Below are positions 1 to 40,083 of a stretch of 64,000 nucleotides of DNA, one piece after another. The notes under the pieces were generated by a model. It searched no databases and was not told where the DNA came from. It saw nothing but the letters and a program-made list of their open reading frames with translations. Location: NCBI GenBank assembly GCA_012212665.1, contig GCA_012212665.1_4517.1, one strand, 5' to 3'. The translations under genes and the position numbers were made by a program. Positions within the stretch are counted from its first letter, which is position 1. Every line of letters starts with the position of its first letter. This stretch comes from a phage.

Positions 1-657
1 ATTATTCGTGTAGGTAATCAGGAAAACGGTTACGACCCACAAGCTGTATATGAATTCCATCATAACGGTACTTTTTATGCTCCAAGCTTACTTAAGAGCA
101 GTAGAGTATCAGCTGGTGGTGGTGACCCTGCATGGGGCGGGCCGTGTATTGTACTTGGAGATAACGATACCGGTTTGCTTTGGGAAAACGATGGTATTTT
201 CAACGCATATGCAAACGGCCAAGGTGTGTTTAGTTTTAGACCTGGTTTAGCTCAGACATTCGGTGATGTTAACTTCCACTGTAATGCAGGTATGTATGTT
301 CGTGATAACATTGATGTTAACGACGTTTATATTCGTTCTGATATTCGTTGTAAGTCGGAAATTAAGCTTATTAAGAACGCTCAAGAGAAATCTAAACTAT
401 TGGGCGGTTATACTTATCTGCTTAAAAACTCTGTTACAGACGAAGTTAAACCGTCCGCAGGTTTAATTGCTCAGGAAGTTCAAGAAGTATTACCTGAACT
501 TGTTTCTGAAGATAAAGAGACCGGACTGCTTCGTTTGAACTATAACGGTATTATTGGTTTAAATACAGCTGCAATAAACGAGCATACAGATGAAATCAAG
601 GAATTGAAATCTGAAATTACCGAATTGAAAGCATTAATTAAATCATTGATAAAATAA
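1..657 (+). CDS. 37: Long tail fibre distal subunit gp37, C-terminal part (5' end lies upstream of the window)
   Basis: Frame 1 is open from base 1 to the stop at 657; C-terminal motif GLIAQEVQEVLPELV followed by a coiled coil resembles tail-fibre intramolecular chaperone domains; immediately precedes gene 38. Confidence 0.6.
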   Translation: MIRVGNQENGYDPQAVYEFHHNGTFYAPSLLKSSRVSAGGGDPAWGGPCIVLGDNDTGLLWENDGIFNAYANGQGVFSFRPGLAQTFGDVNFHCNAGMYVRDNIDVNDVYIRSDIRCKSEIKLIKNAQEKSKLLGGYTYLLKNSVTDEVKPSAGLIAQEVQEVLPELVSEDKETGLLRLNYNGIIGLNTAAINEHTDEIKELKSEITELKALIKSLIK

Positions 658-662
658 TAAAA

Positions 663-676
663 GGGCCTTCGGGCCC
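663..676 (+). other. GC-rich hairpin GGGCC-UUCG-GGCCC between genes 37 and 38
   Basis: Perfect 5-bp stem with UUCG tetraloop directly upstream of the gene 38 Shine-Dalgarno (GGAGG); no U-tract follows. Confidence 0.5.
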
Positions 677-687
677 TGGAGGTTTAT

Positions 688-1467
688 ATGGCAGTAGTAG
701 GAATCCCTGGTTGGATTGGGACTTCAGCCGTTGCTGAAACGGGACAAAGATGGATGACGGCTGCTTCAAGGGAACTTCGTTTAGGAAACCCTTCATGGAT
801 GTCCCAATTCGCGGGCCGTTCAAGAGAAATAATTCACACACTTGGAGCAGACCATAACTTCAACGGTCAATGGTTCCGAGATAGATGTTTTGAGGCAGGT
901 AGTGCACCTATAGTGTTTAATATCACCGGAAATTTGGTATCATATAGTAAAGATGTTCCATTATTCTTTATGTATGGCGATACGCCAAATGAATATGTTA
1001 CTTTGAATATTCATGGTGGAGTTCATATGTGGGGACGAGGTGGTAACGGTACTGTAAACGGAAACCCAGGCACTAATGGTGGCGATGTAATCCAAAATGA
1101 TATCGGCGGAAGACTTCGTATTTGGAACTATGGTGTTATTGCATCAGGCGGTGGCGGAGGTGGTGCAGTGTCATTACAGAATAGCTGGGCGCCAAATGCT
1201 ACAGCAGGTGGCGGTGGTGGTAGACCATTTGGCATCGGCGGAGGTGGCGTTAATTGGCCGGGTGGTAATGCTAGTTATGACGCCCCGGGCGGGGCCGGTT
1301 ACACTTCCCAATTCGGCGGAGGCAATGGCGGTGATGCTGGAGGTCGTGGCGGAGATGGATGGGGTAATCACTTATCTAGATCTGGCGGTGGTGCTCCTGG
1401 CAGAGCAGTATTCGGAAGTTCACCGTCATGGGGTGCTACAGGCACAATCTACGGCTCCTGGATTTAA
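688..1467 (+). CDS. 38: Tail-fibre adhesin gp38, T2-type receptor-recognition protein with glycine-rich motifs
   Basis: 259 aa with multiple poly-Gly blocks ([30 protein letters not shown]) typical of T2-like gp38 adhesins; follows gene 37; GGAGG Shine-Dalgarno. Confidence 0.65.
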
Positions 1468-1485
1468 ACGATAATACCTCTCAAT

Positions 1486-1493
1486 TATAAATA
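1486..1493 (+). promoter_or_regulatory. Late promoter (TATAAATA) upstream of holin t
   Basis: Exact TATAAATA about 20 nt upstream of the t start codon; T4 late promoter consensus recognised by gp55. Confidence 0.6.
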
Positions 1494-1512
1494 TTGATAA
1501 ATGGGAGGTAAT

Positions 1513-2172
1513 ATGGCAGCACCAAAAGTATCATTTTCGCCTAGTGATATTTTATTTGGGTTGCTAGACCGCATTTTCAAAGATAACGCCTCTGGAAATA
1601 TTCTTATTTCAAGAGTTGCTGTTGTAGTTCTTTTGTTCCTAATGGCACTAATATGGTACAAAGGGAATATTTTTATGGATTATTACGTGAGGTCGAAATA
1701 TGATACTTACACAGAAGTAATTCAAAAAGAAAGAAATACACGATTTGAATCTGCGGCTTTAGAACAACTACAAATAGTCCACGTCACATCAAGGGCGGAT
1801 TTTAGTTCGGTGTATTCTTTCAGACCTAAAAATCTAAATTATTTCGTCGACCTTATTGCGTATGAAGGTAAGTTACCTAGCACAGTAACTGAAAAATCTA
1901 TGGGAGGATTTCCTGTTGATAAAACGACAGCAGAATATTCGGTCCATTTAAGTGGACTTCACTTTACTTCTAAAACAGATTTTGCTTTCTTACCTACCAA
2001 ATCAAAAACTCCGGAACTGGCGTATATGTATAGTTGTCCTTACTTCAATTTGGATAACATATATGCGGGAACTGTTTCTATGTATTGGTATAAGGGATCG
2101 GATGTGCTAAATGAAGAACGCTTGGCTGCAATATGCAACCAAGCAGCAAGGATATTAGGGCGGGCTAAATAA
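1513..2172 (+). CDS. t: Holin t (lysis timing protein)
   Basis: Strong similarity to T4 holin T (MAAP..SFSPSDILFG..RVAVV..FRPKNLNYFVD..MYSCPYFNLDNIYAG); start taken at the second ATG, which has a GGGAGG Shine-Dalgarno. Confidence 0.9.
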   Translation: MAAPKVSFSPSDILFGLLDRIFKDNASGNILISRVAVVVLLFLMALIWYKGNIFMDYYVRSKYDTYTEVIQKERNTRFESAALEQLQIVHVTSRADFSSVYSFRPKNLNYFVDLIAYEGKLPSTVTEKSMGGFPVDKTTAEYSVHLSGLHFTSKTDFAFLPTKSKTPELAYMYSCPYFNLDNIYAGTVSMYWYKGSDVLNEERLAAICNQAARILGRAK

Positions 2173-7769: not shown

Positions 7770-8033
7770 TCATATCTCAACTTCCGTGAGTTCCATATAT
7801 CCTTTGTTGATAACCTCTTTAAGGTCTTTAGAAAGAATAACACCAAAATGGTCGTTCATATGTCCATTAACTAAACGAGTTATTTCGGCTTCAGATGACA
7901 TATAAGGCACGTCTGAGTCCCAATGAGATAGACCTAAATGGGTATAAATCATCCCTTCGTCATCTGCCGTGTTGTACATTGAAACAAATTCGCCTGTTAC
8001 TTTATGTTTTGCGTAGAAAAATTTAAATTTCAT
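7770..8033 (-). CDS. Hypothetical protein
   Basis: ORF of 87 aa with AGAGGA Shine-Dalgarno; preceded by promoter copy 2. Confidence 0.45.
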   Translation of the reverse strand: MKFKFFYAKHKVTGEFVSMYNTADDEGMIYTHLGLSHWDSDVPYMSSEAEITRLVNGHMNDHFGVILSKDLKEVINKGYMELTEVEI

Positions 8034-8059
8034 GGTGTTATCCTCTTTTAGATAGGACT

Positions 8060-8089
8060 ACTATACCATAATCCTACTGTGTTGTAAAC
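8060..8089 (-). promoter_or_regulatory. Early promoter, copy 2 of the duplicated 38-bp block
   Basis: Identical to 7548..7577; GTTTAC -35 and TGgTATAGT -10. Confidence 0.55.
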
Positions 8090-8101
8090 ACTTTTATGAA
8101 A

Positions 8102-8659
8102 TTAAAGATGAAGATACCATCCGTTGTAGTTGCTCTTGCGGACGATTTTCTTTAGGTCTTCATGGTCTCCCACGAACTTTATAGAATAAGAGAAGACGTC
8201 AGGTGAGGTTTCTTTGACATTCAATATAATAATACAGTCAGCGACTCGATGATTCAGGAAGGGCCCTATGTTGATTCCGTTGCCGCCTGGATAATCACCA
8301 CTGTATCCTGTTGTAACAGAAATCCATTTAGAATCCATCTGATGTGTCTTGACTTCTACACGAATTCCACAATATTTGGGATGGGCTAACACATCCCATG
8401 CATATGTGTACGGGTCTTCTACGTCTTCATTACCTTTATTAACATATCCGTCTAGCCAATTTGCTACTACATACTCTGCAAAGACTGCAACCTTACAACG
8501 TCGAACTACATCTTCTTTGTTTTGGTCTGGATTTTGGCTCAGGGAATACCGAGCGGTGTCAGCAATCTTCACTTTCATTTCACTAGTCAAAAACTCATTC
8601 GACAGGATAAATGTCGGAAGATTCTTCAGTCTCAACAGTCCCAAGTTCGTCTTTACCAT
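8102..8659 (-). CDS. Hypothetical protein, possibly DenB-like (endonuclease IV position)
   Basis: ORF between ndd and rIIB as for T4 denB; start ambiguous (M1 at 8722, M22 at 8659, M49 at 8578); no motif confirmed. Confidence 0.35.
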   Translation of the reverse strand: MVKTNLGLLRLKNLPTFILSNEFLTSEMKVKIADTARYSLSQNPDQNKEDVVRRCKVAVFAEYVVANWLDGYVNKGNEDVEDPYTYAWDVLAHPKYCGIRVEVKTHQMDSKWISVTTGYSGDYPGGNGINIGPFLNHRVADCIIILNVKETSPDVFSYSIKFVGDHEDLKKIVRKSNYNGWYLHL

Positions 8660-8879
8660 AGATACCTCTGATGTGTAGTTCACCAAAATAAATGCGGTCT
8701 CCTTCTTCAAGATATTCTGCATCTACAGGTGGGATTTCAATAACAACTTCGTCGCATTCTAACCAGCCGTAGTGTGCATCACCAGGATGTTTTACCAATT
8801 TAGCACAATAAACTGATTTACACTTATGATGACCACGAAGATTAGCAATTTTGGATTCTGATACGTCAAATGGATGAAT
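8595..8879 (-). CDS. Hypothetical protein
   Basis: ORF in the rIIB-denB spacer; start placed at an internal Met; overlaps the preceding ORF depending on start choice. Confidence 0.35.
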   Translation of the reverse strand: MHPFDVSESKIANLRGHHKCKSVYCAKLVKHPGDAHYGWLECDEVVIEIPPVDAEYLEEGDRIYFGELHIRGIYGKDELGTVETEESSDIYPVE

Positions 8880-8894
8880 CATAATTACCCCTAA

Positions 8895-8919
8895 AGAAAA
8901 AAAGGGGACCGAAGTCACC
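8895..8919 (-). terminator. Putative weak terminator downstream of rIIB
   Basis: Imperfect UUCG-loop hairpin (GGUGAC-UUCG-GUCCCC, one mismatch) followed by a U7 run on the minus strand. Confidence 0.35.
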
Positions 8920-8924
8920 AATTA

Positions 8925-9860
8925 TTATTCTGCAAATAATTCAGTAACGTCTGAAATTACTTCATAACGACAAGTACGCATCTTAGCATCACCGTAGTCA
9001 ACCGGGATGGATACAACATCGCGTGGATGAACTTTAACTTTCACAACTTTATCTGAGCTTGAACCAAAGTGGCGAATATAAGATTTAGCACAAACGTGGA
9101 GACCGCGAGAACAGGTTTGAGTATCATCGTCGTTAACTCGAGTACGAGGCATTGAAACAACTTTACCTGGGGAGTTATCAAATGTACCACTATAGCAGTC
9201 TAAATAGTCTTTACGAACTACTTTCCACGCATAGAAATACCCATCTTCAGTGATTTCAATATCGTTTGCAACCAAGAAGTCGAATAAACGTTGTACAGCT
9301 TTTTCGCTTGGGTTTTCTAACAGGTTTTCAAGGAACGGCAGATAGAATTTAAAGTCTTCGCCTTTTTCCATAGAATCAATAATACGATTAACCAGTCCTG
9401 AACGAATTTCTATACCTTGATAAAATAAACTACCACCTTCAATAGTAACATTACCGTCAACAAACTTAGTAATAGCTTTCTTGATGTTAATAAGTTCGAC
9501 AGCTTTACTAAGGTTTCCTGCGACCAGATTAGCTTTAATTTCTTCAAAATTTGCATGACTTGATGGGGTCGCATTGTATGCTACGCGTCCTTCAATGATT
9601 GAAATAAATTTAGATGATGCGTTCCATACGATTTCTGGACGATGTCCGCCGATAATAGGTTCATTATTTTCTTGGACTTGTTCTTCGTCTTCAAATTCAG
9701 CGGCTTTCTCTTCGGCTTTAAAATTCTTAACAATCTTACGAAGAGTGTCAGTGGAAATATTGAAGTAATCAGCAATTTCCCGACGGGTCCATTGGCCTGA
9801 TTTAACCAGATCGTAAGCTTCTAACTGTTCTTCTTGAGACAAGCATTTAATATTGTACAT
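8925..9860 (-). CDS. rIIB: rIIB membrane-associated protein
   Basis: 311 aa; N-terminus MYNIKCL and C-terminal block RTRVNDDDTQTCSRGLHVC.KSYIRHFGSS.D.VVKVKVHPRDVVSIP.DYGDAKMRTC.YEVISDV match T4 rIIB. Confidence 0.9.
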   Translation of the reverse strand: MYNIKCLSQEEQLEAYDLVKSGQWTRREIADYFNISTDTLRKIVKNFKAEEKAAEFEDEEQVQENNEPIIGGHRPEIVWNASSKFISIIEGRVAYNATPSSHANFEEIKANLVAGNLSKAVELINIKKAITKFVDGNVTIEGGSLFYQGIEIRSGLVNRIIDSMEKGEDFKFYLPFLENLLENPSEKAVQRLFDFLVANDIEITEDGYFYAWKVVRKDYLDCYSGTFDNSPGKVVSMPRTRVNDDDTQTCSRGLHVCAKSYIRHFGSSSDKVVKVKVHPRDVVSIPVDYGDAKMRTCRYEVISDVTELFAE

Positions 9861-9869
9861 AATGTTTCC

Positions 9870-12083
9870 TTATTTGGCTGCTTCCACAGCCTTCATGAAT
9901 TTAACGATTTGAGCGACTTGTTCTTTAGAAAGAGTACCACGTCGTCCCATGTAGTCTGACACAATATGATAATTGGTTTCGAATTCAATAACCATTTTAT
10001 CATCATTATCGTAAGCATTATCTTTAAGCTTATCGAAAATTTTAGCACACAATTCTAACTTTTTATTCAGTTCTCTGTTAGTAGCACCTGAGAATCGATT
10101 CCATCCCCAACGATTATTTACTGTTGAGAGTTTTGCAAAATCTTTACTGATTTCTTTGTTTTTAGAGCTAAAATACTTACTAAGGAAGTTAAGCTCTTCA
10201 TTACGAGTAATATGATTCAAATAAGGCTGTGCTCTACGACTTGGTGATACATACTCATCATAATCCACTTTATCGATTAGCGTAATATAGTCATTAATTG
10301 ATTTTTCGAACAAGCATTCTACTTCACCAAGTTTACGAACTTTCTTAGCAATCTGTGGACGAACTACAGTGAACTCTTTAATACCTGACAAATCAGCAAT
10401 ACGGGTCAAGAAATTGGAGTCATAGTTCAACCAACCTTTATCTGCGTCAAGACATTCAGCATTAGAACGATTACGAACTATAGCATAACCTTGGATTTCA
10501 TCTGCTTCACTTGCCGGAATAAAGAGGTCTTCTGATACCCAAACATCGTTTTCATTCTTAAAGAATCGATGAGCACTTGGCGATTTAGGACGAGGCTCAT
10601 TAGTCCGTTTCCTGACTTCAATCCATGGCTTAACGATTTGTAAAAGCTCTGAAGTCTTGTACATGTTAATGTTGTCGCCATCAAAGATAACTTTAAGGCG
10701 TTCCAGAAGTTTCATTGCATCTTCGTCTGTAGGGTCAACGAATAGTACACTTTTACCAAAACCGCGTGGAACTTTACCAGTTAATTTAACCTCGTCTTTA
10801 GACATTTCAATTGAATTAAGAGCTCGCATTAATGGAACGCGTCCCTTAACGTCGTCAATAACAATTTCAACGTTTTTAATGTTAATGCCAATCAAACTGT
10901 TAATTGAAATGGTTGTCGTTGAGCTACCACTTTCACGAATACGACGAAGACGAGGGGATTCAACGATATCGTATACGACGCCAAGATTACACCACTCAGG
11001 CCCCATTTTAAAACGTTTGTACAACTCAGAATAAGTTAGTTGTTCTTTAGAGTATTTCAGTGATTCAATATTGGACCCGGCCTTTTCCATGTATTTACGA
11101 GCGGTATAGCCAAGAGAATCAATTTCACGGAACACATGGCGTGGGTATTTACAATCAATCCATTTCTTAGAATCTTCAGCGAACAATTTAGCATCGATTT
11201 CTGCAACACGTTTATGGATATTTGCTACTGTACGTTTATCAAATGACAATGCTTCACGAGACGGGGCTACATCTAGTTCACCCATAGGGAATTTAATATA
11301 AGCTGTAGTGCATCGCGTCATCATCCATGTTTGTTCTTTAATAACACTTCCGATCGGATATACAATACCGCCATAAACAGCCATGATATTACCACGTTCA
11401 CCCCATGGAGCTTCCTTGGCCAAATATACATCGTCAAATTCCGGGAAGTATTTGATATCTTTAACACCACGAACTTCTGCAATATCACCTAGAGGACGCA
11501 TAACATATGCAATTTCGGATGCAAACTTTTCAAAATCTTCCGGGTTAACCGGTACGACTACTTCTACACCCGTACGGTCATCAGGACCCATCTTATCTAC
11601 AAAGGTCGGCTTAATTTGTGGACCCGTGTCATCTTGGTAGATTACGTAACCACGAACTTCACCATTGTGATAAGACGTAAGGTTAAACGTATCGGTATAT
11701 GCTAGCGGAGCTTTAGAGCCGAGTCCGAATCCACCGATGAAATCGTTACTCGATGTTTTAGTTGAAGCAAAATATGAGTTATAGATTCCTGGCTCTTCGT
11801 CATTACCTCTAATGGTGAAATCACTCATACCAGGACCAAAGTCTCGAACTACAAAACGTGGGTCTAAACGACCTGGAGCCTGAACAATAAACTTATCAGT
11901 GCAACCGTTAAGAATTTGTCCATCGATACAGTTTGTAATTAATTCACGTACACAAGCCAATTCTTTGTTTGTATAAAGGTCATTAGACAAAATCTTATAA
12001 ACTTTGCTATTGCCTTGAATAGTGAATGCTGTGCTCTTACCGCCTGAACCAATAATCGTTTCTTTAGCCGTTTCAATAATCAT
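9870..12083 (-). CDS. rIIA: rIIA protein
   Basis: 737 aa; N-terminal region (LYTNK...VRELITN, PGRLDPRFV.RDFGPGMSDF, NDFIGGFGLGSK, GPQIKPTFV..MGPDD) matches T4 rIIA. Confidence 0.9.
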   Translation of the reverse strand: MIIETAKETIIGSGGKSTAFTIQGNSKVYKILSNDLYTNKELACVRELITNCIDGQILNGCTDKFIVQAPGRLDPRFVVRDFGPGMSDFTIRGNDEEPGIYNSYFASTKTSSNDFIGGFGLGSKAPLAYTDTFNLTSYHNGEVRGYVIYQDDTGPQIKPTFVDKMGPDDRTGVEVVVPVNPEDFEKFASEIAYVMRPLGDIAEVRGVKDIKYFPEFDDVYLAKEAPWGERGNIMAVYGGIVYPIGSVIKEQTWMMTRCTTAYIKFPMGELDVAPSREALSFDKRTVANIHKRVAEIDAKLFAEDSKKWIDCKYPRHVFREIDSLGYTARKYMEKAGSNIESLKYSKEQLTYSELYKRFKMGPEWCNLGVVYDIVESPRLRRIRESGSSTTTISINSLIGINIKNVEIVIDDVKGRVPLMRALNSIEMSKDEVKLTGKVPRGFGKSVLFVDPTDEDAMKLLERLKVIFDGDNINMYKTSELLQIVKPWIEVRKRTNEPRPKSPSAHRFFKNENDVWVSEDLFIPASEADEIQGYAIVRNRSNAECLDADKGWLNYDSNFLTRIADLSGIKEFTVVRPQIAKKVRKLGEVECLFEKSINDYITLIDKVDYDEYVSPSRRAQPYLNHITRNEELNFLSKYFSSKNKEISKDFAKLSTVNNRWGWNRFSGATNRELNKKLELCAKIFDKLKDNAYDNDDKMVIEFETNYHIVSDYMGRRGTLSKEQVAQIVKFMKAVEAAK

Positions 12084-12095
12084 ATTTTTCTCTCA

Positions 12096-12296
12096 TCACA
12101 AGTTACGTTTAAAAATTTCTGCTACTTCAAGAAGTTCTTCTTTAGTAGCTGTATCGGTTTGTATTTTATATCGAATTTCTTTAAAGCGTTCTTTAAAGGA
12201 CTCTGCTGATTCGATATCAAAAAATCTTTGGATAAGCCGGAATTCCCGGAGCACTGCTTTATCAAAAAGTTCCAAGTCCACGTTATACGTTCTCAT
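12096..12296 (-). CDS. Hypothetical protein (rIIA.1 position)
   Basis: ORF of 66 aa immediately upstream of rIIA. Confidence 0.5.
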   Translation of the reverse strand: MRTYNVDLELFDKAVLREFRLIQRFFDIESAESFKERFKEIRYKIQTDTATKEELLEVAEIFKRNL

Positions 12297-12388: not shown

Positions 12389-13489
12389 TTACGCTGTGAA
12401 GATTTTATCCCACATCGCAACAACTGCATCTCGGTTATACTTCTTCCATACGGCTTCAGCACGTTTAACTCGAGCTTCGTATGTGTCAGTGAATTCTAAT
12501 ACAGCTTTTGTGTAAAGCGCAACTACTTCTTTCTTAGGAGTAGAGGAATCAATTTCTACACGCACAGTATCTGGGTCATATTCGAATGTCGCGTGCGGAT
12601 AATCCTTAAAAACTAACTGAATCACAGGGACACCTTTAGAGATGGCTTCAATAGAACTATTCTCTACCGTACCCGTGTCAGGACACGTATTGATAAGTGC
12701 TTTAGCTGTTTTAAGACGTTCCATGATTTCACTGTGTGGAGCATCAATAATAACAGGATACTTAGCCGGTGGTGCCCATTTACTAGGACAGTATCCTGCA
12801 CCATTTTCGCCTAGTGCTTTAATCGCTTCAAGAGCAACATCAGTACGACGCATTTTAGTGTCATAACGTTGTGCACTAATAATCAGATCAGTCGCCGGAA
12901 GAACTTCAGGTTTCTCATTCAAACAAATAACCGGATAATCTTCGGCTTCAAACAACGGATTTGCTCGCCAATAATCATAATCAATTTTGTCAGTCAGACC
13001 TGAAGTCATATAACAATATTTGCGTTCAAATTCACGGAAGGCTTTAGTAGGAGCATAACTCTTACCACCGTTCTTATGAATTTGAATAGTCTGGTCCCAA
13101 ATTTGAACAATGCCACGAGATACCGGTTCAAATGGTGTTGCCATAAAATTCTTATGAACTTTAGAGAGACCTGCGTCTTTAATTGCCTGAACGGTTAGTT
13201 TGGTCGGTTCCATTGTAACAACGAAATCGTACTCATTAATGCCGGCTAGTTCAACAATCTTACGAGCCATAGTATAACTCATACCTAGACTGAATTTAGT
13301 CAGATGACCAACAGGATGATGATTAACCTTCCAATCACCAAATGTGTCATTATCAAAACCGATATAATCAATATCGGCACCGATAGAAACTAAATATTTC
13401 AACACATTTAAATGTACTGCTTCAAGACCACCTTGTACACGTTCAGGATTAAATGGGACTGCACGAGATGGGATAAACATAACTTTCAT
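12389..13489 (-). CDS. GT-B fold glycosyltransferase (GT4-like), candidate DNA sugar transferase
   Basis: 366 aa; C-terminal motif TGTVENSSIEAISKGVPVI resembles the E-x7-E / EAxxxGxPVI signature of GT4 glycosyltransferases; lies between rIIA and gene 39. Confidence 0.6.
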   Translation of the reverse strand: MKVMFIPSRAVPFNPERVQGGLEAVHLNVLKYLVSIGADIDYIGFDNDTFGDWKVNHHPVGHLTKFSLGMSYTMARKIVELAGINEYDFVVTMEPTKLTVQAIKDAGLSKVHKNFMATPFEPVSRGIVQIWDQTIQIHKNGGKSYAPTKAFREFERKYCYMTSGLTDKIDYDYWRANPLFEAEDYPVICLNEKPEVLPATDLIISAQRYDTKMRRTDVALEAIKALGENGAGYCPSKWAPPAKYPVIIDAPHSEIMERLKTAKALINTCPDTGTVENSSIEAISKGVPVIQLVFKDYPHATFEYDPDTVRVEIDSSTPKKEVVALYTKAVLEFTDTYEARVKRAEAVWKKYNRDAVVAMWDKIFTA

Positions 13490-13500
13490 AATTAAGCCTT

Positions 13501-13533
13501 ATTAAAATTAAAATGAAGCTCCTAAAGGAGCTT
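13501..13533 (-). terminator. Terminator-like hairpin downstream of gene 39
   Basis: Minus-strand hairpin AAGCUCC-UUUA-GGAGCUU overlapping the gene 39 stop, followed by a U-rich tract. Confidence 0.45.
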
Positions 13534-33526: not shown

Positions 33527-34075
33527 TTAACGAGCCCATTTGATGATTTCTGTAATCAAACCATTACGTTCGCTTGCATTAAATCCTATAACTTTGTTAG
33601 CACCATCATGATTAAGTAATTGATATGTTTGGATTTTGTTATGAATTGCAAACTCTTCAAAATGTGAAATGACTGTATTAAAACCGAATGAAGACAAAGT
33701 AATAAGGTCGTCTTCAAAACTTTCAGTCATTTCATTACGTGTTAAAATAATTGTGAACACATCATGGTTTTGGCAAAGACGAACATAGTCCTGTTCATAA
33801 ACGTCAAGAACCGAGTCCGCATCTTGTCGAATACGTCCATAAACCCAGTTACTAATATATCCACGGTCTAACAGATAAATCTTAGTAGGGTCTAAATAAT
33901 TCAACATCGTTTCGAAACAGCCAACTTCATTTCGAGACTTAACATCGAAACGTCCATCAACTGTTCGTTTAGGGAAATCAATCTTTACATATCTTTCACT
34001 AATTTCCATTATGTCATTAATGAAAGTTGTTTTACCAGCATTATCTGGGCCGTCTACTAAAATAATTTTAGCCAT
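33527..34075 (-). CDS. P-loop nucleotide/nucleoside kinase-like protein (thymidylate kinase / dNK fold)
   Basis: 182 aa; Walker A GPDNAGKTT and LLDRGYIS (DRY/DRH-like) motif; part of the uvsX-43 insertion. Confidence 0.5.
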   Translation of the reverse strand: MAKIILVDGPDNAGKTTFINDIMEISERYVKIDFPKRTVDGRFDVKSRNEVGCFETMLNYLDPTKIYLLDRGYISNWVYGRIRQDADSVLDVYEQDYVRLCQNHDVFTIILTRNEMTESFEDDLITLSSFGFNTVISHFEEFAIHNKIQTYQLLNHDGANKVIGFNASERNGLITEIIKWAR

Positions 34076-34076
34076 T

Positions 34077-34976
34077 TTATTCCTCGATTACGACATCTTC
34101 GTATTTAGGTATATTATACGGTGAAGAAATTAAAGCATTAAAGTAGATGAACTCACCAAGACCTGGATGGAATACTTCTTCAGGATTTTCGAAATATTGA
34201 ATCTTCGGACGTCCTTTAAGAATTTGATAGTACTCAGTTTTAGTTGGATTAAAAATTCGAATCAGCGCTTCTTCAGGATACTTATTTCTGTCGAAGCTAT
34301 TATTTGGATCGGTTATATAAAGCGGTTGACCTAATTGAATTGCACATTCAACCACTTGTTCAAAACGATAACATGGGTCACTAATTCGAAATGGATGAAA
34401 AATACCATCTAGATGAATAGGAGCCAAATCACCTACAAGACGCTGCATGATGGAAGGACGTATAACTTTCTGAGTTACGATAATCTTATTACCATCTGCA
34501 CCTGCGTTAACCAGCACTTCCTTTTGACGTTCATTCAACACAGTAGTTTGAAGTGAACGATTAACTGACAACATATCGGTTTTTAAGAATTCATCAATAT
34601 AAAAGCGTGGTTTATTAGGGTCTGCAGTGATATTGAAATTGAATTCTACGTCAAAAGCGCCATCATATCCAGTGATATCTGTGATTAGAAAATCACAATC
34701 ATAATAAGCAATTAATGAATCAACAACAAATTCATTTTCAGACCAGAAATATTTACGAGTGTTATACGCGTTATCTTTATACCATAATGGAACAAACTTA
34801 AATTCTGGGAAAAGACGTTCACATTCTTTAATATCAGATGCATTACGTGGATATGTAATCACATCACCCGGATTAGCACGGTGCAAATGAAGTTGGAAGT
34901 TGCCATCCTTAAGGATAGCATACTGTCCAGTTTCATAAGACCGCATACTCAAGATTGGTACGCGGAAAATAGCCAT
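34077..34976 (-). CDS. Hypothetical protein at the T4 beta-gt locus; candidate modification transferase
   Basis: 299 aa, no recognisable motif; occupies the position of beta-glucosyltransferase between uvsX and gene 42. Confidence 0.4.
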   Translation of the reverse strand: MAIFRVPILSMRSYETGQYAILKDGNFQLHLHRANPGDVITYPRNASDIKECERLFPEFKFVPLWYKDNAYNTRKYFWSENEFVVDSLIAYYDCDFLITDITGYDGAFDVEFNFNITADPNKPRFYIDEFLKTDMLSVNRSLQTTVLNERQKEVLVNAGADGNKIIVTQKVIRPSIMQRLVGDLAPIHLDGIFHPFRISDPCYRFEQVVECAIQLGQPLYITDPNNSFDRNKYPEEALIRIFNPTKTEYYQILKGRPKIQYFENPEEVFHPGLGEFIYFNALISSPYNIPKYEDVVIEE

Positions 34977-35692
34977 TAGTCAAGGAATCCTTTAACATAA
35001 TCAAAATCACGTTCAAACACATGGGCACTTACCATGGTATGAGTATAATCACCAACTTCTACACCGCATTCGTTAGCGATATAATGAAGTAATTTTCCTT
35101 GGAGATAAAAATCCAACTGCATAACAACAGCACAGTTCTGAGAACGCATATGGCAGTGGGTATAAAGCTTACCATCACGAATATAATAAGTCACTGAGTC
35201 AGTACATGGATATTCAAGTGTTTCGTCCGAATCAAGCAAAGCCTGATCAGAACTTTCTAGAATTTGGAACACAACTCTTCGAGAGTTAGGTTTCTCTTTA
35301 AGTTCTTTTAGAAGAGCTGGTAATTGGGCCGCAATGCGAGGACCATAGAAAGTGTTGAAGTTCGCCGGCAAAGCGTCTGATTTAGGTTTAGAAATAAATT
35401 TAGCGACATTAGGATATGCCTTAAACGCTTCTTCTGCATCAGTACCACCAGAAATCATAAACTTCCAGAAGTCTTCGGCATATTCATAAGAGATGCGGTT
35501 AATACGTGGGTCGGTCATTTTGAATGATGATGGATTGTCAACAACTACTGTCATGGACCCAATTTCATTACAACGTCCAATACGAGAATCAGTTACGAAT
35601 TCAGGGTTTTCTAAAATTTCACGATTGACTGCTTTAAATGCGGTTTGAAAATCTGCGGCTTTGATATATTTCATTGTGTTATGTTTTCCCAT
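34976..35692 (-). CDS. 42: dCMP hydroxymethylase gp42 (thymidylate synthase family)
   Basis: 238 aa; active-site region YPCTDSVTYYIRDGKL...HMRSQN aligns with T4 gp42 (FMCTNTVQYLIRD...NMRSND). Confidence 0.85.
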   Translation of the reverse strand: MGKHNTMKYIKAADFQTAFKAVNREILENPEFVTDSRIGRCNEIGSMTVVVDNPSSFKMTDPRINRISYEYAEDFWKFMISGGTDAEEAFKAYPNVAKFISKPKSDALPANFNTFYGPRIAAQLPALLKELKEKPNSRRVVFQILESSDQALLDSDETLEYPCTDSVTYYIRDGKLYTHCHMRSQNCAVVMQLDFYLQGKLLHYIANECGVEVGDYTHTMVSAHVFERDFDYVKGFLD

Positions 35693-35734: not shown

Positions 35735-35974
35735 TTATTTGAATTTCTTGGCAATGTTGATATAACGTAAAGCTTCAGAATCTATACTTCCAAGAACACT
35801 ATGAAGGAATGCATCAGTGTAGTATTCCAATTGAACAGGTTCTTTAATCACTTTAGCCGCTTTGGTTTCAAACAGGCCCATAAGGGCCTTTTTAAGAATT
35901 TGTTCGTTAGTGTTCAGTTTCATAGTCAAAATCTCTTCGTTAAGTTTATAATTAAAACTTTTTCTAGAAATCAT
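35735..35974 (-). CDS. Hypothetical protein (imm position, but not hydrophobic)
   Basis: ORF of 79 aa between gene 42 and the Cys-rich protein. Confidence 0.4.
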   Translation of the reverse strand: MISRKSFNYKLNEEILTMKLNTNEQILKKALMGLFETKAAKVIKEPVQLEYYTDAFLHSVLGSIDSEALRYINIAKKFK

Positions 35975-37131
35975 TCCGGGTACCTCAAAGCGTCATCAGA
36001 GTTAGTTATATCAATAATAGATATGGAGTTTTCTGCTAACCCGTTTTTAGATAATTGACGTTTATAATACCTTTCACAATATGTACACGTTGACCCACAG
36101 ATTTCATTAGCACAATCAAAATCTGGGTGTCTGAACCACCTTTTTTCTAAAAAGCCATCTAACAAAGAGGTTTCAATATTTACTGTATGTGAAAACTCAG
36201 TCTCATTTTCAAGAGTGAAAATAGTCTCTAAAGGCTTCCACAGTTCTAACAAATTACCTTCAAACTTTTCAGAAGCGTATGCTTCAAGAACTTTCAAAAT
36301 GTAGTCTGTGCTACCTGTACGTCCTGAAACTTTGAATTGAGTGATACCAATATCATTATAAAGTTTCAAATCTTGAGGACGAACAAAACGAGTTCTCAAC
36401 CAGTTAAATGGGTCTGTATCACGAGCTTTAATACAGTGCTGCATAGGATATCCATTTAAGGATTTAGCATCGTCAGCGGTAACATCAGTACTATGGAAAA
36501 TATAGCAAGAGTCACGATAGCTACAATGTGTTGTATACCCTTTACCAGCATTAGAACAGAACTCATTTACAAGAACTTCAAATATTATATTGTTCTTATT
36601 GCAAAACTCTGCTGCACGCTTCAGGAAAGAAACTGAACGGTTCTTATGAATTCCGCAGCAGACCTTTTTGATGTTATATTGGTCATGTAAGTATTTGATT
36701 TGAGTTACAGCATCGACATGTAGAATTGTTGAAACTTCAATCTCAATATCTTTATTGACTTCACGAACAATTTCCATAACAACAGGGTTAGCGATAGTAA
36801 TACGCCATACGCCTATTGACCAAAGATACTGAACATAATCCTGAATAGCTTTCTTCTTCCACTCAACTAGTTCTCTTTTTGAACCAGGATTTATCGTGTT
36901 GAGTGTATAGTTAAAGCAAATACCTAATTCGTTACAACGTTTAACGTAGTCTTCTAACATCTTTTTGTCAACGTCAGGAAGCCTAAAATCAGGTCTGGCT
37001 GCTACAAAAGCCATTTCTCTTGTAGAGCCATATACTTCGTTTATCAAGCTATTAGGATAGGTTTTATTGAGCTCTACGATTTTATCAAGAAGAGCTAAAT
37101 CAAAATTCGTTCCGATTTTAAAAGTATTCAT
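35971..37131 (-). CDS. Cys-rich putative metalloenzyme (possible peptidase U32-like / Fe-S protein)
   Basis: 386 aa; C-terminal CANEICGSTCTYC cluster (C-x4-C-x3-C-x2-C) and EVLVNEFCSNAGKG block loosely resembling the U32 family signature; assignment tentative. Confidence 0.45.
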   Translation of the reverse strand: MNTFKIGTNFDLALLDKIVELNKTYPNSLINEVYGSTREMAFVAARPDFRLPDVDKKMLEDYVKRCNELGICFNYTLNTINPGSKRELVEWKKKAIQDYVQYLWSIGVWRITIANPVVMEIVREVNKDIEIEVSTILHVDAVTQIKYLHDQYNIKKVCCGIHKNRSVSFLKRAAEFCNKNNIIFEVLVNEFCSNAGKGYTTHCSYRDSCYIFHSTDVTADDAKSLNGYPMQHCIKARDTDPFNWLRTRFVRPQDLKLYNDIGITQFKVSGRTGSTDYILKVLEAYASEKFEGNLLELWKPLETIFTLENETEFSHTVNIETSLLDGFLEKRWFRHPDFDCANEICGSTCTYCERYYKRQLSKNGLAENSISIIDITNSDDALRYPE

Positions 37132-37191: not shown

Positions 37192-37593
37192 TTATAGATT
37201 CGGTTTATACGATTTAAATGTTTCGAATTCGCCTTTATTCATAAGAGCTTTGAATTCGTCAGGACGCATAGCTTTGTCGTCGATAATCCAATCATATACT
37301 GGTTTATGTGTTAGCAAATTATGGTACTTCAAGCCAATGTTTGCCAAGTTCTGAATCAGACTTGGGAGAATGTCAATTGCTATACGACCAGGACCTACTG
37401 ACTTCATACCGCGAGCAGTGTAAAGCGTTATGGTATGCCCTGCATCATACAGGGCATTAATGGCGGTCACCATTTCGACGTCTGGTTTGAAGTTCACATA
37501 ATCACGATTGTTATTCCACTCTGTTATACAATCATCGACATCAAAACAAAGATTAAGCATGTTTTCTACACGGTGCATTAGATTCGTTCCCAT
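37192..37593 (-). CDS. HAD-superfamily phosphatase (KdsC-like small sugar-phosphate phosphatase)
   Basis: 133 aa; motif I FDVDDCIT (DxDx[TV]) near the N-terminus. Confidence 0.55.
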   Translation of the reverse strand: MGTNLMHRVENMLNLCFDVDDCITEWNNNRDYVNFKPDVEMVTAINALYDAGHTITLYTARGMKSVGPGRIAIDILPSLIQNLANIGLKYHNLLTHKPVYDWIIDDKAMRPDEFKALMNKGEFETFKSYKPNL

Positions 37594-39266
37594 TGATGAG
37601 TGATATCGCCACCGATTGGACGATAGGAAACACCAGTTTCTTTATCAGTTAGTACCCATTTACCAGGATTTTTTGTAATCAGAGTAGCCGTTACAGGTTC
37701 TGCTACGTCATAACTAATAGAGCCGTCTTGAAGTACACGGCCCATGTTACGTAATTGCTTAGTCAGAAGTTCCATACCTTTATAATATGCGGCAACCGCT
37801 TTAAGTGGATTATTCTTGAAATAACCACCTAATGCAATCCAGATAATTGCTACTGCCAAATGATGATACTCGTTAAACGAACTCATCTTTCCATATTTGT
37901 AAACTAATGGATTGATGTTAATAGTCACATTACAAGTTGTTTCATCAATAGTAAACTGACCCCAGGTCGGATTAGCATTGAATTCATCATAACCTGAAAC
38001 AGCATAAAGCACTTTAGCTTCATCATACAATTTTGGCCCGTAAATCTTGGTTTCACCAAAATATCCACGAGGGTCGATAAACTTGACTTCGCCGTTATCG
38101 GTAATCATAGTATTACTGAAGTTCGGGTCACCATGAATAACAGAGTACTGTCCCTGAGAACGGTTATGATAACGAATAAGATGTTCTAAAGCTTGTTTCA
38201 ACATTGGCTTCAGACGTCCAATCTTAGTGTAGTTCACATGTGTGATTTTACCAAATGAATCAATCAATGGCTGAATGCTTTCACAACGATCAATAACTTT
38301 CGTATAGAACTCTTTAGTGAAATCACGGCGAACAGTTTCAGGACTTACAAAATAAGTGTCCGTGCTGAATTTCAGTGCATCTAAAATTGCATCAACAATT
38401 TGTGGACGAGCAAGACTTGATTTGGATTTAATATATTCAAATGCCGGCTTACCTTTAATGCGTTCCATAATAAAGTGGCCGCCAGGATGATAACTTACAA
38501 TCCGTGGAACTGAATCTGATTTAACTTTCTTATACCAATTGACTTCATCTTTTTGAAGTGCAACGCCCTGTTCTGTTAAAGCAATCTTTGTTACAGTTTC
38601 TTCGCCAATTTCAACTGCATTAAAACTACGATTCAGTTCACGAACTTCATGAGCCTTTTCAAGTTTAGGCATATCACCTAAATCAATTAGATTCATAAGC
38701 TCTGATTTATTGAATGCACTGCCGTAAAGGAATTCTACGAAATCACGACCTTTGCAGTATTCGTGAATTTCCTCATCAGTAGAACCCATGTAGAATTCCC
38801 AGTCTTTGAACTGATAAATTCCTACAACATTACCACCTGTTGAACCTACGTTAGTGATATTTTCACCATCGAAATTATATCGACATTCATCACCCTTAAC
38901 ATAGATTGCGTTAACATTCCAAGACCATGAACCAAAGTCAGGAATAATATCACACCAGTTAACAATTACGTTATGGCCATCTAAATCTTTGTATAATTTA
39001 GCAAGAGCATAAGCAGAACCATACGCTTCATCAACTGTACGAATAGTCACATTGAACCCTTCTTGCTCGCAATAAGCTCGAACAGTTTCAGCAAATTTTG
39101 AATGAACTACTACAATAATTTCATCTGCGCCAAGGTCAGAATAAATTGTATACAAATTGCTCAGAATAGTGTCTTGTTTATAGTTAACAAGCACCTTAGG
39201 AATATGGTGCGTTATTGGATACAAACGAGTTGCCAGTCCAGCACCAAGAATAACAGCTTTTTTCAT
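37578..39266 (-). CDS. Bifunctional sugar-1-phosphate nucleotidyltransferase / anomeric sugar kinase (APH/choline-kinase fold)
   Basis: 562 aa; N-terminus KAVILGAGLATRLYPIT (G-x-G-T-R-L nucleotidyltransferase); C-terminus VIHGDPNFSN...FIDPRGYFG (APH/ChoK catalytic motifs). Confidence 0.7.
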   Translation of the reverse strand: MKKAVILGAGLATRLYPITHHIPKVLVNYKQDTILSNLYTIYSDLGADEIIVVVHSKFAETVRAYCEQEGFNVTIRTVDEAYGSAYALAKLYKDLDGHNVIVNWCDIIPDFGSWSWNVNAIYVKGDECRYNFDGENITNVGSTGGNVVGIYQFKDWEFYMGSTDEEIHEYCKGRDFVEFLYGSAFNKSELMNLIDLGDMPKLEKAHEVRELNRSFNAVEIGEETVTKIALTEQGVALQKDEVNWYKKVKSDSVPRIVSYHPGGHFIMERIKGKPAFEYIKSKSSLARPQIVDAILDALKFSTDTYFVSPETVRRDFTKEFYTKVIDRCESIQPLIDSFGKITHVNYTKIGRLKPMLKQALEHLIRYHNRSQGQYSVIHGDPNFSNTMITDNGEVKFIDPRGYFGETKIYGPKLYDEAKVLYAVSGYDEFNANPTWGQFTIDETTCNVTININPLVYKYGKMSSFNEYHHLAVAIIWIALGGYFKNNPLKAVAAYYKGMELLTKQLRNMGRVLQDGSISYDVAEPVTATLITKNPGKWVLTDKETGVSYRPIGGDITHQWERI

Positions 39267-39307: not shown

Positions 39308-39451
39308 CTAGTTAAAGCATTCATACTTTGCTTGTAGTCCAATCATAATCCATCCGATTATAAGAGTCGGAATCATTACTGGAGCCGTTAAGCTCCAGTA
39401 GATAGTCATGACAAGCATCAATAGTAAAAGTCCTATTGTTATTGCTTTCAT
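39308..39451 (-). CDS. Small hydrophobic peptide (47 aa)
   Basis: Unannotated ORF MKAITIGLLLLMLVMTIYWSL...; its ATG overlaps the TGA of the SIS gene (ATGA). Confidence 0.3.
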   Translation of the reverse strand: MKAITIGLLLLMLVMTIYWSLTAPVMIPTLIIGWIMIGLQAKYECFN

Positions 39452-40083
39452 TGTTCGCCTCGTAACATGGCACCTAGTGCACCACCAGGGTGGAACTTAA
39501 GGAAGTCATTAGAGGTAAATCCACGTTCAGACGAAAGGTTGATAGCAAACGTATCGATAAGCGCTAACAACAATGTAGTGGACATGGTCGGAGCCAGAGA
39601 ATTCTCATCAACCTCTACCGCGATGCCTGTACAGAACGTATAATCAAAAAGAGCTTCGTATTCTTGCGGAATGTCAGGGTTACAATGTAACAGAATCTGT
39701 TTAACCTGAGGACGAATCATACGAAGATGTTTAGCAACACCTATCATTTCTTCAGTCTTACCAGAACGACTGATGTGAACTAATACATCATTAGGCGCAA
39801 TGAATCCTGCATCACCGTGAGAATAATGCCCGGTGTTCAAATACATGCTAGGAATACCTAGTGAAGCAAAAGTCTCGGAAGCTTTAGTTGCGATATTAGC
39901 GTTCTTACCAACACCTGTAATAATTACTCGGCTTTCATAATTACTCAGTCCAGGGCGACGAAGAGTTTCAAGAATAGCATTATATCGGGCAGAGTTTTGA
40001 CTAATTACTTTAGCCATAGTGGCAAGAGATGAAGCTTGTTTTACGATTGCGTCAATAGCGATAGTGATTGGTGTAGTTTTCAT
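39448..40083 (-). CDS. SIS-domain sugar-phosphate isomerase, arabinose-5-phosphate isomerase (KdsD/GutQ)-like
   Basis: 211 aa; motifs ITGVGKNANIA, HGDAG, SRSGKTEE, APTMSTT, FHPGGALG align with the KdsD SIS domain; no CBS domains. Confidence 0.75.
   Translation of the reverse strand: MKTTPITIAIDAIVKQASSLATMAKVISQNSARYNAILETLRRPGLSNYESRVIITGVGKNANIATKASETFASLGIPSMYLNTGHYSHGDAGFIAPNDVLVHISRSGKTEEMIGVAKHLRMIRPQVKQILLHCNPDIPQEYEALFDYTFCTGIAVEVDENSLAPTMSTTLLLALIDTFAINLSSERGFTSNDFLKFHPGGALGAMLRGEQ

Follow-up and report, generated by a model that had tools for sequence, protein, structure and literature searches.

The transferase gene and its surroundings

The window that we analyzed, a 64,000-nucleotide stretch of phage DNA, contains an open reading frame for a 366-aa protein between an rIIA.1 homolog and the gene for the large subunit of topoisomerase II (Table 1). 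Both the frame and the C-terminal motif that a first-pass annotation had quoted for it were located as described. This motif, VENSSIEAISKGVPVI, spans residues 275-290 (12620..12667 on the minus strand) in the C-terminal Rossmann domain, and in an alignment of 15 members of the RB69 gp3 family, to which the protein belongs, residues E281, A282, and G286 were conserved at 90% or more, with E281 nearly invariant. The DNA of the region is 99.9% identical to that of Escherichia phages CAU_ECP01 and PECP20 and is 90-100% conserved in 164 records of phages that belong to the RB69 group (genus Mosigvirus). PHROG 8302 ("unknown function") aligns with the protein over its whole length, at positions 1-366 of 366 (E 1.6e-222). 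Given this conservation and the full-length match, the frame is not a chance one.

Table 1. Positions of the genes and features discussed in the text
Feature	Position	Strand	Basis or remark
rIIA	9870..12083		Downstream of the transferase gene; 46% to T4 rIIA
rIIA.1 homolog	12096..12296	-	Pfam T4_RIIA1, E 2.1e-30; 71% identical to T4 rIIA.1
366-aa GT-B glycosyltransferase, RB69 ORF003c/gp3 ortholog	12389..13489	-	ATG start, TAA stop
G+C-rich hairpin followed by T-rich tract	13516..13533	-	Between gp39 stop and transferase start
Unsplit topoisomerase II large subunit (T4 gp39 + gp60 equivalent), 605 aa	13532..15349	-	Pfam DNA_gyraseB, HATPase_c, TOPRIM_C
Nucleotide (thymidylate-like) kinase, RB69 gp45 equivalent	33527..34075	-	PHROG 761, thymidylate kinase, E 5.7e-45
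299-aa protein, RB69 gp46:47 and DLP3 gp79 homolog	34077..34976	-	46% to DLP3 gp79, E 7e-92; PHROG 3891
Thymidylate-synthase homolog with D169N/N177D/L143E, predicted 5-hydroxy-dCMP synthase	34976..35692	-	Pfam Thymidylat_synt
Peptidase-U32-like protein, 386 aa, RB69 gp50 equivalent	35971..37131	-	Pfam Peptidase_U32; PHROG 5757
Small HAD-type phosphatase candidate, RB69 gp51/HY126 AfhF equivalent	37192..37593	-	PHROG 1238; role from PMC13326640
Bifunctional nucleotidyltransferase and kinase, RB69 gp52:53/HY126 AfhE equivalent	37578..39266	-	Pfam NTP_transferase; weak kinase-family matches
SIS-domain arabinose-5-phosphate isomerase, RB69 gp55 equivalent	39448..40083	-	Pfam SIS; role from PMC6024577, PMC13326640

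Directly upstream of the transferase gene, across a gap of 42 nt, lies the topoisomerase gene, whose product is 79% identical to T4 gp39 over 474 aa. Several GenBank records mark a terminator at the hairpin in this junction, and an AAGG ribosome-binding site stands 7 nt ahead of the transferase ATG. On the other side, a 92-nt spacer separates the gene from rIIA.1, and rIIA comes next. The gene had been described as sitting where T4 carries rIIA.1, gene 60, and mobA; this is correct for the 60/60.1/mobA segment but not for rIIA.1, and because rIIA.1 is kept, the transferase gene fills only T4's 60/60.1/mobA place. The topoisomerase large subunit is itself encoded by one frame, without T4's gene 60 split, translational bypass, or mobA insertion. 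We measured 20.6 kb from the transferase gene to the 299-aa frame and about 26 kb to the SIS-isomerase gene, in agreement with the earlier estimate of about 20 kb to the sugar-activation genes. Elsewhere in the window, positions 1..2000 are richer in G+C (0.418, compared with about 0.37), and their GC skew is positive, the reverse of that in the remaining sequence, a pattern that suggests a change of coding strand or of gene module there.

Fold and family of the 366-aa protein

The 366-aa protein is a GT-B glycosyltransferase. An AlphaFold model built from 15 sequences, which we adopted in place of a poor one from 6 sequences (pLDDT 62), folds into two Rossmann-like alpha/beta domains, and the active site lies in the cleft that they form. 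The ortholog from phage HY126 has a crystal structure in the PDB: the chains of entries 9iqz and 9ir0 are 98% identical to the 366-aa protein, with seven substitutions between it and the HY126 chain. Entry 9ir0 is titled "phage HY126 glycosyltransferase with UDP," and it is from this title alone that we take UDP binding. Structure prediction and structural comparison bear out the GT-B fold claimed by the first-pass annotation. T4 alpha-gt ranked 36th in the structure search, and beta-gt fell outside the top 60.

All of the nearest structural neighbors are retaining enzymes, among them bacterial GT4-type GT-B proteins (sucrose-phosphate synthase 6kih, BshA, PimA, and WaaG) that share 10-14% identity with the 366-aa protein and, as a group, act on lipids, small molecules, or polysaccharides. 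The 366-aa protein differs from the GT4-type enzymes in its proposed acceptor, which is DNA, in its proposed beta-linked product, and in the EX7E motif, where the second Glu (E281) is conserved and the position of the first is occupied by G273. Neither Pfam nor NCBIfam gave a match to the protein itself, even at permissive thresholds (Pfam to E 10), so that annotation by sequence profiles is not enough to identify it. Among the 15 family members, Glyco_transf_4 was matched by one (best E 1.6e-7), Glycos_transf_1 by two (best E 2.3e-5), and GT4-conflict by three (best E 1.1e-3). No sequence bridge to cellular GT4 enzymes appeared in a large protein collection, in which the family amounts to 5 clusters in a word-indexed search and to 12 matches among 1.84 billion representatives in an exhaustive HMMER search.

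The window had been said to lack homologs of the T4 DNA glucosyltransferases, and tblastn with both T4 proteins confirmed this, returning best E values of 2.4 and 2.9 and no match within the 366-aa frame. T4 alpha-gt (GT72) and beta-gt (GT63) have no sequence similarity to the 366-aa protein, and they differ from it in their sugar, in their base (hydroxymethylcytosine [hmC] versus 5-hydroxycytosine [5hoC]), and in the hydroxyl that accepts the sugar, which is on the base for the T4 enzymes and would be on a sugar for the 366-aa protein.

Beyond the protein's own family, a BFVD fold search placed glycosyltransferases of Rhizobium phage RL2RES and Sinorhizobium phage phiM9 as the closest viral neighbors, at TM 0.67-0.76. 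We assume that RL38JI and these two phages may be members of one phage family. In the RL38JI family, 5-hydroxycytosine is glycosylated with hexoses (PMC13326640). If RL2RES and phiM9 do belong with RL38JI, the structural match hints that enzymes extending the sugars of 5hoC DNA share an origin.

The arabinosylation cluster and the modified base

The transferase gene co-occurs in the window with a 5hoC arabinosylation cluster at 33.5-40.1 kb, consisting of the D169N synthase, the putative first glycosyltransferase, and the genes for UDP-arabinofuranose (UDP-Araf), which is made by enzymes of the RB69 gp52:53/HY126 AfhE type (PMC13326640). Its membership in a DNA-sugar pathway, as first proposed, is further supported by its Acinetobacter phage homologs, which sit within the arabinosylation cluster. 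The Peptidase_U32-like gene in the middle of the cluster has no counterpart at the equivalent place in Acinetobacter phage DLP3, between the gp80 synthase and gp81; a function as a "sugar or heterocycle reductase" has been offered for such proteins as a guess (PMC13326640).

The identity of the modified base depends on the synthase. The homolog in the window is about 98% identical to PDB entries 9iqc, 9ir2, and 9iqu, and it shares only 25% identity with T4 gp42, whereas neighboring core genes are 61-91% identical to their T4 counterparts. When aligned with E. coli ThyA, T4 gp42, and DLP3 gp80, it reads MRSQ-N-CAVVMQL-D against QRSC-D-VFLGLPF-N in E. coli; DLP3 gp80 has exactly this motif, and T4 gp42 retains Asp at position 169. 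The D169N substitution marks synthases that produce 5-hydroxy-dCMP, and DLP3 gp80 was identified as a 5-hydroxy-dCMP synthase by experiment (PMC13326640). To judge from its sequence, then, the gene product bears the marks of a flavin-type 5-hydroxy-dCMP synthase and not of a dCMP hydroxymethylase. From the D169N signature and the motif shared with DLP3 gp80, we conclude that the base is 5-hydroxycytosine and that an ether bond joins the sugar directly to its C5.

Published chemistry of close relatives points the same way. RB69 DNA carries beta-D-Araf-(1->3)-alpha-D-Araf ether-bound to cytosine C5, as determined by mass spectrometry and NMR (PMC13326640), and HPLC/MS found the same mono- and di-arabinosyl cytidines in Mosigvirus NP, in a study that called the earlier hmC assignment erroneous (PMC13390438). 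The NP ortholog is 99.7% identical to the 366-aa protein. The first-pass annotation had named hmC as the acceptor, and the 5-hydroxy signature of the synthase together with the 5hoC chemistry of RB69 and NP (PMC13326640, PMC13390438) overturns that claim.

Distribution of the two candidate transferases

The two candidate transferases differ in how widely they occur. The 366-aa family was found in only 212 phage records: Mosigvirus-type phages, with one copy each, 55 Acinetobacter phages, with two places each, and a single "Tegunavirus" record. Two divergent queries returned the same set of 211-212 records with the same organism counts. The family of the 299-aa protein, by comparison, was detected by tblastn in 349 phage records, nearly always adjoining the thymidylate-synthase homolog, from phages of Escherichia, Klebsiella, Serratia, Enterobacter, Yersinia, Proteus, and Acinetobacter and from Shewanella Thanatos, and it accounts for over 138 clusters of the large protein collection.

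Copy number in the 366-aa family follows the sugar chain in the few phages whose chemistry has been measured. Thanatos is mono-arabinosylated and has a single arabinosyltransferase (PMC13326640); RB69, NP, Bas46, and Bas47 are di-arabinosylated in published chemistry; and DLP3 DNA carries beta-Araf-(1-5)-beta-Araf-(1-3)-alpha-Araf (PMC13326640). Thanatos, RB69, and DLP3 have zero, one, and two gp3-family genes and zero, one, and two beta-arabinoses, respectively, a comparative rule that our analysis adds to the published picture. Because the family is limited to phages that add two or three arabinoses, we regard the 366-aa protein as a chain-extending enzyme.

The 299-aa protein had been ranked as only the second candidate, after the 366-aa protein, for moving the sugar onto the base. 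Its presence in 349 records, including mono-arabinosylated Thanatos, reverses this order. We propose that it is the pathway-wide, first (alpha) arabinosyltransferase acting on 5-hydroxycytosine. Pfam and searches of the PDB by sequence and by profile revealed no glycosyltransferase signature in it, and it has no detectable similarity to the 366-aa protein (BLASTP E 1.6; hhalign against the gp3 family, probability 0.4%); its glycosyltransferase fold is therefore taken from PMC13326640, where proteins of this type are listed as glycosyltransferases in Table 1.

Proposed role of the 366-aa enzyme

Considering these results together, we think it probable that the 366-aa enzyme adds a second, beta-linked Araf to O3 of the first Araf on 5hoC DNA, using UDP-Araf as donor and acting after the 299-aa enzyme. 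What the enzyme acts on, which bond it makes, and when in the pathway it acts are our inferences from the distribution of the family and from published proposals (PMC13326640, PMC13390438). In the pathway that we envisage, the 5-hydroxy-dCMP synthase and kinases would supply 5-hydroxy-dCTP, which replication would build into DNA, while the isomerase, the bifunctional kinase/uridylyltransferase, and the phosphatase encoded at 37.2-40.1 kb would convert ribulose-5-phosphate to UDP-Araf. The 299-aa enzyme would then place alpha-D-Araf on the 5-hydroxyl of cytosine. The 366-aa protein, a soluble GT-B enzyme, would bind UDP-Araf and act on replicated DNA that already contains 5-O-(alpha-D-arabinofuranosyl)-cytosine, adding beta-D-Araf at O3 to yield beta-D-Araf-(1->3)-alpha-D-Araf-O5-cytosine, as in RB69-type DNA. 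The bulk of the second sugar may help the DNA to escape host nucleases and other DNA-targeting defenses.

Biochemical work on DLP3 bears on this role from both sides. In vitro, DLP3 gp77 and gp76 acting jointly transferred a third arabinose onto RB69 DNA, with UDP-Araf as donor, while single DLP3 transferases were inactive on DNA containing 5hoC only (PMC13326640). The sole in vitro activity of the family thus needed two paralogs, and Mosigviruses carry one copy, which is a point against the second-Araf role; the role assigned to gp3 in PMC13326640 is likewise a proposal. Stereochemistry raises a further difficulty. Since one donor gives rise to both alpha and beta linkages, one of the two transferases must invert and the other retain. 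A beta product from a UDP-alpha-D-sugar needs inversion, and the fact that the closest structural neighbors of the 366-aa protein are all retaining argues against this. One way around the difficulty, which we offer tentatively and hold to be rather doubtful as a whole, is that the donor is UDP-beta-D-Araf, that the 366-aa protein acts on duplex DNA as a homo-oligomeric, retaining beta-D-arabinofuranosyltransferase, that the unrelated 299-aa protein is an inverting DNA glycosyltransferase of a new kind, and that the third-sugar activity arose by duplication in Acinetobacter phages.

An alternative is that the 366-aa protein is itself the primary transferase, placing the first arabinose straight onto 5hoC, as in the 2018 proposal with the base corrected, and that the 299-aa protein has its role elsewhere. 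Thomas et al. 2018 considered it the only recognizable glycosyltransferase in RB69 (PMC6024577), and sequence and profile methods gave the 299-aa protein no such signature. Moreover, the only HY126 glycosyltransferase with a structure deposited in the PDB is the 366-aa ortholog, which could thus be what the HY126 authors regard as their main transferase, against a role in adding a second Araf. We consider this alternative unlikely, however, since outside Mosigvirus-type and Acinetobacter phages the 366-aa family occurs in only the one "Tegunavirus" record, while the remaining pathway genes are present in 349 records. In addition, Thanatos is mono-arabinosylated with only a 299-aa-type glycosyltransferase (PMC13326640), the copy number of the gp3 family follows the number of extra sugars, and single DLP3 transferases failed on 5hoC-only DNA (PMC13326640).

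Further still from the evidence are two other readings. Glycosylation of a non-DNA target, such as a nucleotide precursor, a phage protein, or the host envelope, with a merely coincidental link to the pathway, would fit the substrates of the nearest structural relatives (lipids, small molecules, or polysaccharides) and the 20 kb that separate the gene from the cluster in Mosigviruses. It is nevertheless very improbable: both Acinetobacter homologs adjoin the synthase, the kinase, and the first glycosyltransferase, they act on DNA in vitro (PMC13326640), and the family is confined to phages with poly-arabinosylated DNA. Transfer of a pentose onto hydroxymethylcytosine in DNA was the original 2018 reading, when RB69 was assigned ara-hmC (PMC6024577), and it survives in the Bas47 record MZ501047, which annotates a "putative hmC-arabinosyltransferase." We give this reading hardly any credence, because the synthase has D169N, the active-site motif of a verified 5-hydroxy-dCMP synthase, and only 25% identity to T4 gp42, and because NMR and MS (PMC13326640) and HPLC/MS (PMC13390438) found the sugar joined to C5 by an ether bond, without an intervening methylene.

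Relation to known systems

By sequence comparison, the 366-aa protein is the ortholog of RB69ORF003c/gp3 (NP_861693.1; NC_004928, 2523..3620), with 99.2% identity over 366 aa, and the distribution of the family set out above likewise follows from such comparison. RB69 gp3, the HY126 glycosyltransferase (9iqz, 9ir0), and the "Aat" of Bas46 and Bas47 are within 1-3% of the 366-aa protein and have the same 366-aa length, the same position between rIIA.1 and gene 39, and the same 5hoC arabinosylation cluster; nothing of substance differs. That Aat of Bas46 and Bas47 is the ortholog of the 366-aa gene is our assumption from secondary citations. Mahler et al. (Cell Host Microbe 2025) reportedly described Aat as the transferase that adds the second or third arabinose. 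According to a secondary source, deletion of the arabinosyltransferase Aat made Mosigvirus Bas46 susceptible to a defense system (PMC13216743).

The DLP3 proteins are more distant, with full-length identities to the 366-aa protein of 43% for gp77 and 41% for gp76. They share with it the predicted donor (UDP-Araf) and the type of acceptor (arabinosylated DNA), but they are encoded as a tandem pair within the cluster, beside the kinase, the first glycosyltransferase, and the synthase, and both are required in vitro, whereas in the window one copy lies 20 kb away from the cluster and, as we propose, yields only a disaccharide. From the 57% identity between gp76 and gp77, their duplication took place within the Acinetobacter phage lineage, later than its divergence from the Mosigviruses, and the 366-aa protein appears to be co-orthologous to the pair, with no special relationship to gp77.

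The gene, its fold, and its probable role are thus already known. RB69 ORF003c was proposed as an arabinosyltransferase by Thomas et al. 2018 from HHpred and Phyre2 (PMC6024577), the second-sugar role was proposed in 2025-2026, and Lee et al. 2026 modeled RB69 gp3 and labeled it "beta-arabinosyltransferase 2" (PMC13326640). Most GenBank records still name the gene "hypothetical protein," "hmC-arabinosyltransferase," or "DNA alpha-glucosyltransferase," and this annotation needs correction. Arabinosylated 5hoC shields Mosigvirus DNA from restriction enzymes, some CRISPR-Cas systems, and DNA glycosylases, and it also provides type IV systems such as BrxU with targets. Assigning enzymes to sugars would help to engineer phages, to predict host range in the face of defense systems, and to synthesize glycosylated DNA with enzymes.

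Outlying and variant family members

A few members of the 366-aa family stand apart from the rest. The lone "Tegunavirus" record carries one that probably has less than 60% identity. Another (P0009), 38% identical, lies on an unrelated metagenomic phage contig (Logan SRR34261890 contig, 8001..9140) among structural genes (gp13-like, large open reading frames, and terminase), and within 8 kb of it we found no arabinosylation genes; given these surroundings, the family may have other contexts or acceptors. A further distant member (P0008) sits on a contig of 1.5 kb.

Two phages gave two-piece matches. In Escherichia phage LH01, the match suggested a 1-nt frameshift. Shigella phage JK45 (MK962757.1 2223-4423) appeared as a candidate natural knockout, which we rejected, as its transferase gene is intact; the gene is followed by a tandem partial duplicate of its 3' part, encoding 136 aa (locus 1494..1904), which could be either a real duplication or an assembly artifact.
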